Shown here piece after piece: positions 9,093 to 22,060 of a stretch of 64,000 bases of DNA; position 1 is the first letter of the stretch; each line of letters opens with the position of its first letter. Under the pieces are notes generated by a model that was given only the letters and a program-made list of their open reading frames with translations, was not told the origin of the DNA and searched no databases. Made by a program: the position numbers and the translations under genes. This DNA is from a phage, in the sequence record PZ347775.1; one strand, written 5' to 3'.

Positions 9093-9470
9093 TCACTCAA
9101 ATTTAATGGCTTGAAGGAGACTAATAATTCTTAAGCGACTTCTTTCATCTTTAACTGTAAAAGAAAGAGGGTCACCAGATTTCATAGTGATGGTGCATCC
9201 AAAATCAAAATCTTCTGTAACTTCTTCGAAGAAGTCAAATTCTTCATCATAAATTAGAACATTACTCTGAAAACTGTGAAGAATTTTTCCATCATTTCCA
9301 GATGCTGTACTAATCATTGTAACATTATGGCCTTTCATATCTTCAACGATAAATTCGCTTGTAGATATTACGGCATTAATAGAACCATTCCTATAAATAG
9401 AAGAAAGCAGATATTTCTTTTCTTCACCTTCGCGAACACGATATTTCTTACCGATTTTAAACATAATCAC
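9093..9470 (-). CDS. hypothetical protein
   Basis: 125-aa ORF; synteny between gene 39 and dexA. Confidence 0.5.
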   Translation of the reverse strand: MIMFKIGKKYRVREGEEKKYLLSSIYRNGSINAVISTSEFIVEDMKGHNVTMISTASGNDGKILHSFQSNVLIYDEEFDFFEEVTEDFDFGCTITMKSGDPLSFTVKDERSRLRIISLLQAIKFE

Positions 9471-15504: not shown

Positions 15505-16107
15505 TTATAGATTAAATCCTTCAAAATCAAGAGTATAGATAGTGTATGTTGAATACTTTTTATACTCGTATCTATCCGCAATTCTAAATACACTTCCAGC
15601 TGGTATCATTACTTCCTGTTCATCTGAAACTAATTCCATATTACGATAACGATGGCTATCCGGAAATTTAAAACTCGGACTATATTCTTTACAACGTAGA
15701 GCTTTTATAGCATACTCCTGAAAATTAAATACCATAGGAGCTTTGAATTCAAAAATAACTTGTGTGTTGTATTCTAATCCAGAAGCAAAATGCAGAGCTA
15801 TATTTTTATCATATGAAGCTGATACTACTTTATCGAATGTAATAATATCAATTCCTTGATTTAACACCTGTTTAGTCTCAACTGGAACACCTCTCCAAAG
15901 AGGTTTATCGTTTGGAACCAAACGAGATTTGATTATTTCATTTAACCAAGAATGATCGTCTGGCTTATTAGTAATACAATGAATTAAAAGTTCAATTTCA
16001 GATAAATTAAATCCTTCAGAAAGTAATTCTTCACGAATAGAAGCACGCACCGATGCATCCATTGATTTTATTTTAAAATCTTTTAATTGCATTGCTGAAT
16101 ATTTCAT
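15505..16107 (-). CDS. modA: ModA ADP-ribosyltransferase
   Basis: 200-aa ORF; R-S-E motifs LWRG / SASYD / DEQEVMIP; T4 ModA length. Confidence 0.9.
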   Translation of the reverse strand: MKYSAMQLKDFKIKSMDASVRASIREELLSEGFNLSEIELLIHCITNKPDDHSWLNEIIKSRLVPNDKPLWRGVPVETKQVLNQGIDIITFDKVVSASYDKNIALHFASGLEYNTQVIFEFKAPMVFNFQEYAIKALRCKEYSPSFKFPDSHRYRNMELVSDEQEVMIPAGSVFRIADRYEYKKYSTYTIYTLDFEGFNL

Positions 16108-16727
16108 TCAACTACCTCAATATCATACACTTTAAATGTTCCAAACGAATCATGTAATTTTTCTTTTGAAATAGAAGTTATTTTATACTTTCCAATTGGA
16201 ATCATCCATTCTTGTTCACGTACAATCATCATTAAGTTATCAGTACGTTCTGAATCTAATCCATCAGTATCTTCATATGTATACTTAAACTCAGTATTAG
16301 GAGAAGAAAGTATAATATCGCTGATATGGTCAGAGTAATTAAAAGCTTTATCAGTTTTTAAGCGAAGTACTATTTCAGTGAAATATTCAGCATAGGAAAA
16401 AGAACACGCTGTATGCAAACTAGTAGTAAATGAATCTACTCTGTTCGTTGAAAACACTTCTCCAACTTGTAAATCTTTAATGAGTTCTTTTGTCGATTTT
16501 GATATACCACGATATAACTGATAAGGTGATTCAGTTAAATGCTTTTTAATGATTTTATTCAACTGCCGATGAAGAGCTTCATTCTTTTTGGCTTCCATAC
16601 ATTGCCAAAGAATTGACTGTTCAAAGTCAGTAAATTTTTCACAGACCTTTTTATACATATCATATTGAAAATCGACACTTTCAGCTTTTATAGATAACTG
16701 TTCAACATCTGCGAGATTAATAATCAT
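16104..16727 (-). CDS. modB: ModB ADP-ribosyltransferase
   Basis: 207 aa from second ATG after GGAGG SD; motifs LYRG / SFTTS / REQEWMIP. Confidence 0.88.
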   Translation of the reverse strand: MIINLADVEQLSIKAESVDFQYDMYKKVCEKFTDFEQSILWQCMEAKKNEALHRQLNKIIKKHLTESPYQLYRGISKSTKELIKDLQVGEVFSTNRVDSFTTSLHTACSFSYAEYFTEIVLRLKTDKAFNYSDHISDIILSSPNTEFKYTYEDTDGLDSERTDNLMMIVREQEWMIPIGKYKITSISKEKLHDSFGTFKVYDIEVVE

Positions 16728-19171: not shown

Positions 19172-19187
19172 GTAATTCTCCTTTTAT

Positions 19188-19397
19188 TTAAATTACATGA
19201 CTATTTATAATAAATTCTTGCGGAACGCTAAAATATCCAATTTTAGTTAATATAACAACATCACCGTTAATAACTACCGGAGAATAATCGGCTGGAGCAT
19301 TAAACTTCCAATGAGCTCTAATATTATATCCATCAGAACCAAATGCTCGACTAGCCGGTCTCCCGGCTTTTTGCCATGCATAAAAATCAAATTTCAT
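19188..19397 (-). CDS. hypothetical protein (69 aa)
   Basis: ORF between soc and gene 56. Confidence 0.5.
   Translation of the reverse strand: MKFDFYAWQKAGRPASRAFGSDGYNIRAHWKFNAPADYSPVVINGDVVILTKIGYFSVPQEFIINSHVI
19202..19209 (-). promoter_or_regulatory. T4 late promoter TATAAATA for soc
   Basis: Plus-strand tatttata at 19202-19209, about 30 nt upstream of soc ATG. Confidence 0.55.
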
Positions 19398-19594
19398 TTT
19401 GAATGCTCTATAATTAATTTTAAGGCTTCTTCATGCACCTTACCTAATTGTATATGTCCAGTTTTAATTGTGTAAGCTTTGTGGAGCTGATTAGATAAGA
19501 GCTCACATACGAGCTCCTTGTCATAATTTTTAAATAGCTGGTCAATACGTTTCTTGTGGGCTTTCTTAAGCTGGCGTTTATTTAAACGAGCCAT
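19394..19594 (-). CDS. hypothetical protein (66 aa, basic)
   Basis: ORF between soc and gene 56. Confidence 0.5.
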   Translation of the reverse strand: MARLNKRQLKKAHKKRIDQLFKNYDKELVCELLSNQLHKAYTIKTGHIQLGKVHEEALKLIIEHSK

Positions 19595-20112
19595 TAATAA
19601 CCTCGGTCTTGACGAGCGAAGTTTTCAGCATTTTTCAGATAATAAAGTTTAAAGATTTCTTCAGCCGTAAGACCAAGACCTTGGAACATGTTCAGAACGA
19701 AATGAAGAATATCAATCATTTCGAATTTAATTTCCAACTGGTCTTGTGGAGACAAATCAGTAATTAGAGTTTCACGGCGTTCACCATGTTGAGCTTTCCA
19801 AGGCTTCCATACAGCAGATGCATCTTTTTCGCCATTGCTCATACCGCCAAGAGATGTCAGAAGTTCACGGAATTCATCGTCAATATAATCTTTCTGATTA
19901 CGTAGCCAATCAACAACTTCACCAGCAGTAGCCAAATCATCAGGATGACGATTATATTCAGGTTTATCTTTAGCTAAACGAACTTGCAGAGATTTCTGCA
20001 TATCAAGCATAACCTGCAGCGGGTCTTTTTCATCACAGAGAATATCCCAGTATTCATTTTGAGCTTTATCAGCGCCTTCGATCAGATGACTACATTCGTT
20101 GAAATGTGGCAT
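19594..20112 (-). CDS. 56: gp56 dCTPase/dUTPase (MazG-like dCTP pyrophosphatase)
   Basis: 172-aa ORF; T4 gp56 length; synteny. Confidence 0.88.
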   Translation of the reverse strand: MPHFNECSHLIEGADKAQNEYWDILCDEKDPLQVMLDMQKSLQVRLAKDKPEYNRHPDDLATAGEVVDWLRNQKDYIDDEFRELLTSLGGMSNGEKDASAVWKPWKAQHGERRETLITDLSPQDQLEIKFEMIDILHFVLNMFQGLGLTAEEIFKLYYLKNAENFARQDRGY

Positions 20113-20113
20113 G

Positions 20114-20764
20114 TTATTTTTCCTTTCTTATGAAGTTTTCTATCATATGTCTATAGCAGATATTAGGATAACCTGCCTTGACAGCTATTTTATTAAATTT
20201 TGTGCGCTTAGGTCTATTATTATAAACCCATAATTCATAAAGCGCATCATAACTATTCCATATTTCTCCTCGCCTAGGATTTGGTAAACCGTATCGAGGC
20301 GAATTTTTACCGCTAAATCTTCCTTTTCGGGCTTTACTCATATTAGCCTTGGCTTCATCGGATATAATTTTACCTTTATGAGCTAGACGCATTTTGGCTT
20401 TAGTTTCTTCTGGGGTCTTTTTGCCTTTAATCCATGACGGCTTGCCATATCTAGGATTATTTTCACCCGAGAAAAGAACAGAGTTTTGGATTTTAAGAGT
20501 TTCTATTAATCTACTTGTTAATTTAACACCTTTATTATATCGCATTAAATTTACAGCATAATGCAATCCTCTCACATCTGGATATATTTTAGTTAATAAT
20601 CTATGAGCTATAAAATGCTCACGCGCAGTTAACTCAACAAGATTGTTTTTGTCATCTGCTCCTCCTATACATCTAGGAATTATATGATGGCGTTCTTTAT
20701 ATCCGCCAAGATGCCGGCATTTAGCTTTTGTAATTAAAGCCGAGTAAATTTTTTGGTAATTCAC
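20114..20764 (-). CDS. free-standing HNH homing endonuclease with NUMOD-like DNA-binding repeats
   Basis: N-terminal His-Me finger ERHHIIPRCIGGADDKNNLVELTAREHFIAH; repeated basic K-G-K modules; GTG or nearby start with AAGGA SD. Confidence 0.8.
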   Translation of the reverse strand: MNYQKIYSALITKAKCRHLGGYKERHHIIPRCIGGADDKNNLVELTAREHFIAHRLLTKIYPDVRGLHYAVNLMRYNKGVKLTSRLIETLKIQNSVLFSGENNPRYGKPSWIKGKKTPEETKAKMRLAHKGKIISDEAKANMSKARKGRFSGKNSPRYGLPNPRRGEIWNSYDALYELWVYNNRPKRTKFNKIAVKAGYPNICYRHMIENFIRKEK

Positions 20765-20834
20765 ATATATCCTTTCAATTCATTGGTTAGTAGATTAATT
20801 ATACAATAAATATATAAAGCAATAAGGAGGATAT

Positions 20835-21035
20835 ATGGTACAAAAATTAATGGCACTTGTTAATGCCATCAAAGGTAATAAAAAACGTATAGCTTTTACT
20901 ATTTCTGCTATGATAGGAATTTTACTTTGGAATTTTGTTTTATCGCCAGTTGCTATTGCTCATGGCGTTAGTATTCCAGTAATTACTCTTGATACATTCG
21001 TAGATTTAGCATTTGCTTTAGTTGGGTTAATTTAA
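20835..21035 (+). CDS. 66-aa small membrane protein on the opposite strand
   Basis: Strong SD AAGGAGG 4 nt before ATG at 20835; predicted TM helix IAFTISAMIGILLWNFVLSPVAIA; only convincing plus-strand gene in window. Confidence 0.55.
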   Translation: MVQKLMALVNAIKGNKKRIAFTISAMIGILLWNFVLSPVAIAHGVSIPVITLDTFVDLAFALVGLI

Positions 21036-22060
21036 ATCTTAGCATATTTAGATAGCCGCATTTTAGCCATCAACCCTTGGGCAATATTATTTTTCATATA
21101 TTCCATAATTTGTTCAGGGGTTGCACCTTCCTTTCTAATCATATCATTAACATCTTTTGATTTCCAGGGAGATTTGTCCCAAAACATAACCCTTTCTCCT
21201 GCATCAACTAATTTAGTCATTCGTTTAATAGTGTCAGGATGACGAGGTTCATTATCTAAAACCCATACACGTCTATCTTTAAATGGAACAATTTCTAGGT
21301 CTAATTGACCACCCGTAATAGCTATACCATTTTCAATAAAAAGCGAATCTATAGGTCCTTCTAGAACATATACATCACCATCTTTAACCCGTTCAACACC
21401 ATAGATTTTTGTTGCCTCAGGATAAGCTTTGATGGTGATATATTTTTGGGGAGCATCTTTCTTTAATGCACGCCCTTGAAAAGACTCAGCTTTTCCATTA
21501 GCATTATAAATTGGAATAACAAGACGAGGCTCAGGTATTTCCTTTTTGTATGTTCCTGGTGCTATACTATTAACTAATTTAGGCCATTCGGTTGTAAACC
21601 AAAGATATTTCCATTTGTCCTTTGGAATACAACGAGCTTTTACGTATTTTATAATTGGATGGTCTTCCGCCAGTTTATCTAATCTAACACATGACGGAAG
21701 AGATTTAATTATTTTCTTCTCAGGTTGTTTAGGAAGTTCTTTAGGTTTTTCTACTGGACGACTTTTACCTTTTTCTTTTCTTATTTCAAAGATATACTCA
21801 CGATATAAATCGGGTTCAAACTCCTTTAAATATATTCCGATTGGTGCATGATAGTTGCAGTTATAACAATGAATATTTCCTTCATTATTATCGCCATAAT
21901 ACCATCCACGGGCTTTATTTTGGTCGGTTTTTGAATCTCCACAAACAGGGCATCTAAACCGCAATTTAAAAGTTGAACTATTATTTACTTGTGTGAATTT
22001 AGGTAAATGAGCTAATGCACGATATGCAAACTCATTATCAATCCAAGGTATTGATGACAT
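21032..22060 (-). CDS. 61: gp61 DNA primase
   Basis: 342-aa ORF; N-terminal zinc ribbon CPVCGDS...CYNC and Toprim core; T4 gp61 length. Confidence 0.93.
   Translation of the reverse strand: MSSIPWIDNEFAYRALAHLPKFTQVNNSSTFKLRFRCPVCGDSKTDQNKARGWYYGDNNEGNIHCYNCNYHAPIGIYLKEFEPDLYREYIFEIRKEKGKSRPVEKPKELPKQPEKKIIKSLPSCVRLDKLAEDHPIIKYVKARCIPKDKWKYLWFTTEWPKLVNSIAPGTYKKEIPEPRLVIPIYNANGKAESFQGRALKKDAPQKYITIKAYPEATKIYGVERVKDGDVYVLEGPIDSLFIENGIAITGGQLDLEIVPFKDRRVWVLDNEPRHPDTIKRMTKLVDAGERVMFWDKSPWKSKDVNDMIRKEGATPEQIMEYMKNNIAQGLMAKMRLSKYAKI

Follow-up and report, generated by a model that had tools for sequence, protein, structure and literature searches.

Two kinds of previously described element bear on the locus reported here. 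The free-standing Mob homing endonuclease genes of T4-like phages have been reviewed, together with the habit, common to Mob and Seg genes, of travelling as promoterless cassettes (PMC2988022). The second is RB69ORF029w, a small open reading frame (ORF) that earlier literature listed as "novel" and not found in T4 (PMC1524935). We analyzed the interval between gene 56 and gene 61 in a 64-kb segment of a T4-like (Tequatrovirus) phage genome (sequence record PZ347775.1; this whole stretch is referred to as the window). Positions 20,114 to 21,035 of the window contain a gene for a 216-residue HNH endonuclease and, on the opposite strand, a gene for a 66-residue membrane protein. We hold with good confidence that the interval combines a selfish Mob-family HNH gene with an unrelated, resident and conserved 66-residue gene that is probably expressed late, and that the absence of dam is independent. 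The genes concerned are as follows.

20114..20764, minus strand: free-standing HNH/NUMOD3 homing endonuclease gene, Mob-like, 216 residues, GTG start
20835..21035, plus strand: small membrane-protein gene, 66 residues, ATG start, matching phrog_2024; orthologue of RB69ORF029w and VR7ORF033w
19594..20112, minus strand: gene 56 (gp56 dCTPase), identified from the ORF list and Pfam dUTPase_2; context gene
21032..22060, minus strand: gene 61 (gp61 DNA primase), the constant convergent neighbor of the small gene

Its distribution marks the small gene as resident and conserved in enterobacterial T4-like phages and as unrelated to the HNH gene. In tblastn searches, its product was found in 693 phage records at 46–100% amino acid identity, and in nearly every record among those listed the match abuts or overlaps the annotated primase gene. 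The HNH protein was found at an identity of at least 80% in about 58 records, and genomes that carry the small ORF without HNH include ime09, T4, T6, ST0, VR7, Marfa, STP4-a and KP185. A first-pass annotation of the window had suggested that the small protein may be cargo of the endonuclease cassette and had named, as a refuting case, genomes that share the HNH gene but lack the peptide. We found the distribution turned around, with the peptide in roughly ten times more genomes than HNH, and the ORF itself lies outside the cassette, whose edge is about 65 bp short of it in alignments of genomes with and without HNH. Between the window and Jiaodavirus 15882-6-1, the HNH proteins are 93% identical, gp56 79%, gp61 61% and the small proteins 26%. 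Because the ORF is common without HNH, lies outside the cassette and is 26% rather than 93% identical in Jiaodavirus, we regard it as resident and not as cargo.

Four configurations of the interval were observed: 56–dam–orf–61 (T4), 56–HNH–dam–orf–61 (ELT1 and IME537), 56–HNH–orf–61 (the window and fPS-90) and 56–orf–61 (ime09 and T6). In seven named T4-like genera, and in Klebsiella phage Marfa, the small gene lies between gene 56 and gene 61, next to the 3′ end of the latter and convergent with it. The same layout was seen in Mosigvirus ST0, Gaprivervirus VR7, Dhakavirus VR5, Gelderlandvirus STP4-a, Jiaodavirus KP185 and Marfa, and in those phages too the small gene is oriented opposite to everything around it. 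In the window, the HNH gene and the small gene stand head-to-head with 70 bp between them, and the stop codons of the small gene and gene 61 overlap.

T4 itself carries an intact copy (NC_000866, 17738–17938) that is 92% identical to the window protein and is unannotated in both the RefSeq record and the original X01416 entry. In a 15-billion-protein collection, neither the NCBI nor the UniRef entries contain the exact T4 protein, and the window version occurs on 170 contigs as "hypothetical protein". The window protein matches phrog_2024 over residues 2–66 (E value 1.9e-30); a scan of IMG/VR gave only 10 loci. The Gapriverviruses have two tandem paralogues of the small gene (VR7, locus L007, 984–1302; a VR20-like phage, locus L019, 2259–2399). 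The first is intact and of Tequatrovirus/Mosigvirus type; the second, of Dhakavirus/Klebsiella-phage type, adjoins gene 61, with a frameshift in VR7 and a truncated N-terminus in the VR20-like locus. A frameshifted copy in ECCR664 (locus L008) was set aside, as it comes from a sparsely annotated 134-kb record. We also disregarded the label "putative head morphogenesis protein" that a T6 record (AP018814, locus L026) gives to the small ORF, as the same record calls gp56 "ferredoxin"; it also labels soc "terminase small subunit".

What the first-pass annotation had read from the letters of the window was upheld in full: the identity of the HNH gene, the membrane gene, the absence of dam and the lone plus-strand gene stood. 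The cargo interpretation did not. For the opposite-strand 66-residue ORF, we confirmed the motif AAGGAGG 4 nt before the ATG and a hydrophobic core that forms one predicted helix (residues 16–42), and we regard the ORF as a real gene for a predicted membrane protein. It also proved to be the sole credible plus-strand gene of the window: a scan of the 64 kb for another plus-strand ORF of at least 40 residues, lying outside minus-strand ORFs and preceded by a Shine-Dalgarno sequence (SD), returned none. The close and fully annotated relative fPS-90 agrees, as its orthologue (g032) is the only plus-strand coding sequence among the 90 in its first 50 kb. A 31-residue minus-strand ORF (20761..20856) was rejected as a gene, since it lies upstream of the transcription start site (TSS) of the middle promoter described below and its T4 counterpart diverges after nine residues.

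The pattern of substitution argues that the 66-residue ORF is a real protein-coding gene, under purifying selection only in its own frame. From the collected loci, 22 distinct coding sequences were codon-aligned, and frame controls were run in four clades (Tequatrovirus, Gaprivervirus, Mosigvirus and the Dhakavirus/Marfa pair); the frame of the small gene was the only one open in all four. The ratio of nonsynonymous to synonymous differences (pN/pS) was 0.17 in Tequatrovirus, 0.15 in Mosigvirus, 0.16 for Dhakavirus versus the Marfa group (where pS was saturated at 0.79, with pN 0.12) and 0.38 in Gaprivervirus. In the most divergent pair, Dhakavirus versus the Marfa group, variable sites fell at codon positions 1, 2 and 3 in the ratio 10:4:39. 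Four of the five control frames were rich in stops, and three gave pN/pS values of 0.8–4.6 in most clades, the -0 frame being lower only in Tequatrovirus and Gaprivervirus. One control weighs against this reading: the antisense -1 frame also showed low pN/pS (0.20–0.28). We attribute this to the third positions that it shares with the small gene, and the frame contains stops in three of the four clades. Additionally, a profile search yielded 105 clusters at 90% identity, all of 41–73 residues. In an exhaustive profile search of 1.84 billion representatives, we recovered 19 small proteins, which extend the family to more distant members sharing the core W[ND][FY]..VP.A...G..LP....[ED], and that search returned no fusion to a known domain.

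The beginning of the small gene overlaps a possible signal on the other strand.

20837..20872, minus strand: terminator-like hairpin, with the stem-loop at 20872..20847 followed by TTTTTGT, within codons 5–13 of the small gene

This hairpin is present in all Tequatrovirus copies and absent from other genera, and the annotators of fPS-90 marked a terminator at its position; it is plausibly the terminator for gene-61 transcripts. Since it is specific to one genus, it cannot explain the conservation of the ORF across genera. The hairpin and the small-gene codons share the same DNA, and gene-61 transcripts that reach the hairpin are antisense to almost the whole small-gene mRNA.

We next consider how the small gene is expressed, for which two plus-strand features are relevant.

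20824..20830, plus strand: Shine-Dalgarno sequence AAGGAGG, four nt before the ATG; kept in all lineages examined
20805..20812, plus strand: predicted T4 late promoter AATAAATA, an A(-13) variant of TATAAATA; predicted TSS at about 20818

The small gene is most likely transcribed from its own gp55-type late promoter, with a predicted start near 20818. In the window, AATAAATA (a match at 7 of 8 positions) stands 22 nt upstream of the ATG and is followed by TATAAA, and it sits in the spacer of a middle promoter of the opposite strand. The 60–70 nt upstream of the ATG were compared across lineages, with Jiaodavirus and Gelderlandvirus checked afterwards. In every lineage of the first set except one (L024), nATAAATA occurs 24–30 nt before the ATG and is followed by a strong SD, and its position holds even though the upstream gene differs (dam, the 186-residue ORF described below, HNH, gene 56 or a 94-residue gene). 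The perfect form TATAAATA is found in the Klebsiella phage Marfa clade and in related metagenome contigs (L022 and L023); AATAAATA is found in the window, Mosigvirus and Dhakavirus, GATAAATA in T4, and CATAAATA in Gaprivervirus and Jiaodavirus, in the last case nearer the ATG, at about -20. A published list of 50 T4 late promoters contains 32 perfect sites and 9 with A(-13), the commonest variant (Geiduschek and Kassavetis, PMC2988020), and the -13 position has been described as poorly conserved in T4 relatives, with A(-13) variants (Nolan et al., PMC1524935).

The motif is otherwise avoided. Each strand of the 64 kb has 3 copies of ATAAATA compared with about 26 expected, and the five [TA]ATAAATA sites in the window include this one and another that lies 30 nt upstream of the soc ATG (TATAAATA at 19209), which, judging by the sequence, is the late promoter of soc. 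Moreover, the spacer of the T4 gene-56 middle promoter, which in T4 is far from the ORF, reads CATACTCAAATGA and has no late motif, whereas in dam-less phages the same spacer fronts the ORF with the sequence TATATTTATTG, or CAATAAATATA when written on the strand of the ORF. A late motif has thus been kept or created wherever the upstream region of the ORF came to lie. The plus strand has no sigma-70-like promoter ahead of the ORF, and all early and middle transcription of T4 runs opposite to the small gene (PMC2988020). Given its orientation, early transcripts through the region would be antisense to it. Four points weigh against late expression: Gelderlandvirus STP4-a has only a degenerate ATTAAATA (6 of 8 positions matching), lineage L024 lacks the motif, the hidden Markov model of Nolan et al. 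2006 predicted no late promoter before RB69ORF029w (PMC1524935), and our search of the literature on RB69ORF029w, T4 TSS maps and ribosome profiling, and antisense or late transcripts between dam and 61 found no expression data. Elsewhere in the window, a perfect TATAAATA on the plus strand at 9392–9399 is followed by neither an SD nor an ORF. The plus strand of the 64 kb has only two [TA]ATAAATA sites, this one included; it may be a late antisense promoter in the early region.

We now turn to the HNH gene. We assign the 216-residue ORF to the HNH homing endonucleases of Mob type, as a further member of a well-known class, and it is already annotated as a homing endonuclease in relatives. An HNH motif can be read in its N-terminal domain (E24-R-H-H-I-I-P...G-G...N-N-L-V-E-L...H50), and the ORF contains the segment ERHHIIPRCIGG...NLVELTAREH from which the first-pass annotation had named an HNH endonuclease. 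In agreement with this, two stretches downstream of the nuclease domain match Pfam NUMOD3 (PF07460; 29.3 bits compared with a gathering score of 20.4), and the ORF matches the phrog_655 "homing endonuclease" family (E value 1e-59). By tblastn, T6 MobE is 45% identical over residues 1–165, and MobD is 35–37% identical over 98% of the length. A search of PDB sequences with the HNH protein as query aligned the HNH motif with Cas8f-HNH and gave nothing otherwise useful. Against the assignment stand a match to the Pfam HNH model slightly under its gathering score (18.8 bits compared with 21.4; E value 0.0019) and the fact that the cleavage activity and target site are predictions.

Alignments of genomes with and without HNH place the inserted cassette at approximately 20113–20769, between the SD and the ATG of gene 56. 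The signals around it are listed below.

20770..20775, minus strand: original gene-56 Shine-Dalgarno sequence AAAGGA, now serving the HNH GTG (from genome comparison)
20121..20126, minus strand: replacement gene-56 Shine-Dalgarno sequence AAAGGA inside the last HNH codons (read from the sequence)
20798..20821, minus strand: MotA-type middle promoter TGCTTTA, N11, TATAAT, with a predicted TSS at about 20791 (from pattern and homology)

Whatever the genus, every genome without HNH has GAATTGAAAGGA in front of the gene-56 ATG, and genomes with HNH have it in front of the HNH GTG. Alignment further revealed that TTATTTTTCCTTTC is duplicated at the 3′ end of HNH. The final HNH codons (AAG AAA GGA AAA TAA) give the new SD, and the HNH gene ends one base from the gene-56 ATG. 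The MotA-type pattern was found 14 times in the window compared with 2.55 expected, and 11 of these sites are on the minus strand. In T4, entry X01416 marks the mot-box and -10 element of P(M)16.53 at the homologous position, which lies upstream of gene 56 at oriA, and the fPS-90 annotators likewise predicted a middle promoter here. The element in the window is the counterpart of T4 P(M)16.53, now reading HNH first and then gene 56. In T4, the oriA primer (NC_000866, 16763) is annotated as a gene-56 transcript from the upstream middle promoter. In the window, the inserted HNH separates that promoter from gene 56 by about 650 bp, and the architecture of oriA may differ in phages that carry HNH.

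Presence and absence of HNH at this one site can be followed in four pairs (window/ime09, ELT1/T4, L023/L022 and 15882-6-1/KP185). The insertion point is identical in dam-positive and dam-negative Tequatrovirus, Dhakavirus VR5, Jiaodavirus 15882-6-1 and metagenome contig L023, and HNH-less sister genomes exist for each lineage that carries the insertion. Besides the Jiaodavirus copy, same-site relatives are found in Dhakavirus VR5 (78% identical) and in L023 (79%), whose sister contig L022 has no HNH. The first gene-56 codons, ATG CCA CAT TTC AAC (ATGCCACATTTCAAC, MPHFN), are identical in HNH-bearing Tequatrovirus and Jiaodavirus, and HNH-less gene-56 alleles start with MAHF or MAYF (ATGGCnCAYTTTAAY). 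An HNH protein far more alike than its flanks, together with shared gene-56 codons, is the signature of horizontal homing with co-conversion. Comparison of these genomes thus identifies HNH as a free-standing mobile gene that has spread horizontally across genera with co-conversion.

We read the course of events as follows. HNH, carried as a promoterless cassette as the comparison shows, has homed into the short gap between the SD and ATG of gene 56. It took over the resident MotA-dependent middle promoter and SD, and it supplies gene 56 with a new SD from its own last codons. The enzyme is expected to cut HNH-less relatives at or near the highly conserved start region of gene 56, with predicted cleavage of HNH-less alleles upstream of gene 56 near GAATTGAAAGGAAAAATAATGGC. 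Recombinational repair would then copy HNH in, and the first gene-56 codons would be dragged along. The stretch downstream of gene 56 holds small ORFs of soc.1/soc.2 type in the window (19172–19593) and segF in T4 (15606–16280). Both sides of gene 56 are therefore insertion sites for homing endonuclease genes, each filled in a different set of phages.

The first-pass annotation correctly stated that the T4 interval has dam and that the window does not: the T4 record contains the gene, and a tblastn search of the whole 64-kb window with T4 Dam gave no dam (best E value 0.58). T4-type Dam at an identity of at least 90% was found in 182 phage records, and the Tequatrovirus-type small ORF at 80% or above in about 500. 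These numbers indicate that a dam-less 56–61 interval is the commoner state, as also seen in T6. Because all four combinations of HNH and dam, present or absent, exist, the absence of dam is independent of HNH. By this comparison, the missing dam is an independent and common indel in a hyperplastic interval, in which the content between the small gene and gene 56 varies from dam, dam plus a 186-residue ORF, or HNH to MazG-like and LprI-like genes or a 94-residue gene. The 186-residue ORF lies between dam and the small gene in IME537 (locus L001, 2513–3073, minus strand) and OE5505 (locus L027, 541–1101), and is weakly DpnII-like below threshold (Pfam 16.8 bits compared with a gathering score of 23; PADLOC REase_II, E value 9e-5). 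A Dam methylase beside a protein resembling DpnII, a GATC-specific restriction enzyme, is an odd pairing in a phage. In Marfa (locus L020, 1371–2472), the slot holds a MazG-like 93-residue ORF and a 252-residue ORF with a borderline match to LprI (lysozyme inhibitor).

For the small protein, AlphaFold2 with a 43-sequence alignment gave a model with a predicted local distance difference test score (pLDDT) of 83 and helices at residues 2–12, 16–42 and 52–63. The N-terminal 18 residues include five basic ones (K4, K13, K16, K17 and R18), residues 19–42 are hydrophobic, and the C-terminal third contains two aspartates; by the positive-inside rule, this charge distribution points to an N-in, C-out orientation. 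RB69ORF029w had been predicted to have a transmembrane (TM) segment at 21–41 and no signal peptide (PMC1524935, supplement). The protein is therefore most likely a single-pass inner-membrane protein with its N-terminus inside, a kinked TM helix at about 19–42 and a short, periplasmic, acidic, amphipathic C-terminal helix. Residues W32, N33, P38 and G44 are invariant and A40 and P48 nearly so. All six lie in the outer half of the helix or in the turn after it, and G64, close to the C-terminus, is nearly invariant as well. The concentration of conserved residues at the periplasmic end suggests a specific contact there. Two points weigh against this picture. The topology is a prediction, in which the hydrophobic C-terminal segment could be a second membrane span, and searches of Pfam, NCBIfam, PADLOC and PHROGs, run both for the one sequence and for an alignment of 43 members, matched no family of known function, returning only phrog_2024 and chance-level hits. 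A Foldseek search of the model against BFVD matched only its own family.

The small protein may act late by binding a membrane or periplasmic partner. The most plausible role, on inference only, concerns the envelope or the timing of lysis. Distant members occur in phage contigs that are not T4-like, in mixed contexts (lysozyme, Endonuclease VII, RelA_SpoT and a prophage end). Two of them lie three genes upstream of T4-type lysozyme, and one (P0120; phrog_2024, E value 1.3e-9) has this arrangement in siphovirus-like contigs. These lysozyme contexts are a weak hint at a lysis or envelope role. We put at about an even chance the stronger proposal that the protein is a late inner-membrane factor common to enterobacterial T4-like phages, T4 included, with a role outside present T4 biology. 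Such a factor might adjust lysis or its inhibition, shield or reshape the envelope in the late phase, or tether a step of assembly to the membrane.

Several other explanations were weighed against these readings. That the 66-residue ORF is an exclusion or toxin peptide moving with the endonuclease was suggested by the adjacency of the two divergent genes in the window and by a product that is small and hydrophobic, like many toxins. We give this idea practically no credence, because the great majority of genomes with the ORF, including RB69-like phages, lack HNH, because the cassette stops short of the ORF, and because the ORF diverges with the lineage of its host phage, Jiaodavirus having its own version beside a nearly identical HNH. 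As for a type I toxin, only a match to Ldr_toxin at chance level was seen (E value 0.1, in 1 of 43 members). The evidence neither favors nor argues against a toxin or exclusion function as such. A different possibility is that the ORF is untranslated and its DNA is kept for minus-strand signals, namely a gene-61 terminator, the oriA middle promoter or an antisense RNA. The hairpin inside codons 5–13, the middle promoter abutting the ORF and the lack of any ORF annotated here in the T4 reference or X01416 would fit. However, the hairpin is confined to Tequatrovirus while the ORF stays open across genera at 20–50% amino acid identity, third-position substitutions run along the whole ORF with pN/pS of about 0.15, the strong SD is kept everywhere, and the residue pattern reaches distant homologues in unrelated genomic contexts; we consider this explanation very improbable.

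If the gene is real, it could still be other than late, served by an early or constitutive sigma-70-type promoter or by read-through only. Nolan et al. called no late promoter for the RB69 orthologue, and position -13 deviates from T in most Escherichia-phage lineages. We nevertheless find this improbable, given that T4 early and middle transcripts run the other way (PMC2988020), that the plus strand offers no sigma-70-like promoter and that an otherwise avoided motif is conserved in position and perfect in the Marfa clade and in L022/L023. Somewhat less remote, yet still unlikely, is a holin-like role, in which the protein would form membrane lesions or regulate the T holin as part of a lysis cassette. 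It is small, membrane-embedded and predicted to be late, distant members lie three genes upstream of T4-type lysozyme, lysozyme lies within about 1.5–3.5 kb in two other contexts, and one UniProt entry for a close homologue is named "Holin". That name has no stated evidence, and no holin family was matched in Pfam, PHROGs or NCBIfam; the hydrophobic C-terminus ALVGLI differs from the charged tail typical of holins. In one lysozyme context (L032), the two proteins between the distant member and lysozyme lack TM segments, and other distant members stand beside RelA_SpoT or Endonuclease VII genes. In T4-like phages, the small gene does not adjoin the lysis genes: the first 50 kb of fPS-90, which contain it, have no annotated endolysin or holin, and on the T4 map the genes e (lysozyme), t (holin) and rI (antiholin) are located in other parts of the genome.

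Overall, the reading of a mobile endonuclease gene beside a resident, probably late gene involves ordinary elements: the small gene belongs to a known "hypothetical" family (phrog_2024) and is the one under-studied gene, and present evidence does not indicate a new kind of system. The analysis removes a tempting story of toxin or exclusion cargo and illustrates how adjacency to a mobile gene can mislead when one genome is read. HNH provides a textbook-quality natural example of intronless homing across genera, with a base-precise site, a captured promoter and SD, and a visible co-conversion tract. Moreover, T4 is among the best-studied genomes, and its reference record is without a gene that is under purifying selection, is positionally conserved in seven named genera and apparently has its own late promoter. 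T4 may have an unrecognized late membrane function. On this reading, the small gene is the only clockwise-transcribed gene in a long block of early genes, whose early transcripts would be natural antisense to it. Its conservation, coding signature, probable late promoter, orientation and missing T4 annotation make the small gene a reasonable experimental target.

Comparison with known systems places both genes. Imm, the RI antiholin and Sp are small T4 inner-membrane proteins with a short periplasm-facing segment, and the small protein, as modeled, is comparable to them in size, membrane anchoring and that segment. This is a comparison of mode of action and not of family, as no sequence or fold similarity was detected; they are also made early, or early and late, whereas the small protein is predicted to be late only. 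In its expression signals, the small gene resembles soc, a late gene in the T4 early region: both have the same short promoter motif, 20–30 nt ahead of the ATG, and then a strong SD. However, soc is on the early-gene strand, and the small gene is on the opposite one, convergent on gene 61. Its nearest relatives are RB69ORF029w, VR7ORF033w and RB32 ORF030w, which share family (phrog_2024), position and orientation beside gene 61, except that T4 does have an intact copy, contrary to the "novel" label.

For the HNH gene, T4 SegF is a positional parallel: a free-standing endonuclease gene flanks gene 56, and the 5′ or 3′ region of gene 56 is the neighboring marker of intronless homing. SegF reportedly cleaves gene 56 (Belle et al. 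2002). It is a GIY-YIG-type enzyme whose gene abuts gene 56 on the soc side, and the window lacks segF. MobE and MobD of T4 and T6 share with the window protein an N-terminal HNH motif and NUMOD3 repeats. Like Mob genes, the window gene is intergenic and promoterless, borrows an upstream phage promoter and is polymorphic in presence or absence among close relatives. It differs from them in its GTG start and in its location directly upstream of gene 56, mobE being at nrdA/nrdB and mobD at nrdC.11/mobD.1. Additionally, the window cassette comes between gene 56 and the SD and promoter that belong to it, and brings a substitute SD with it.

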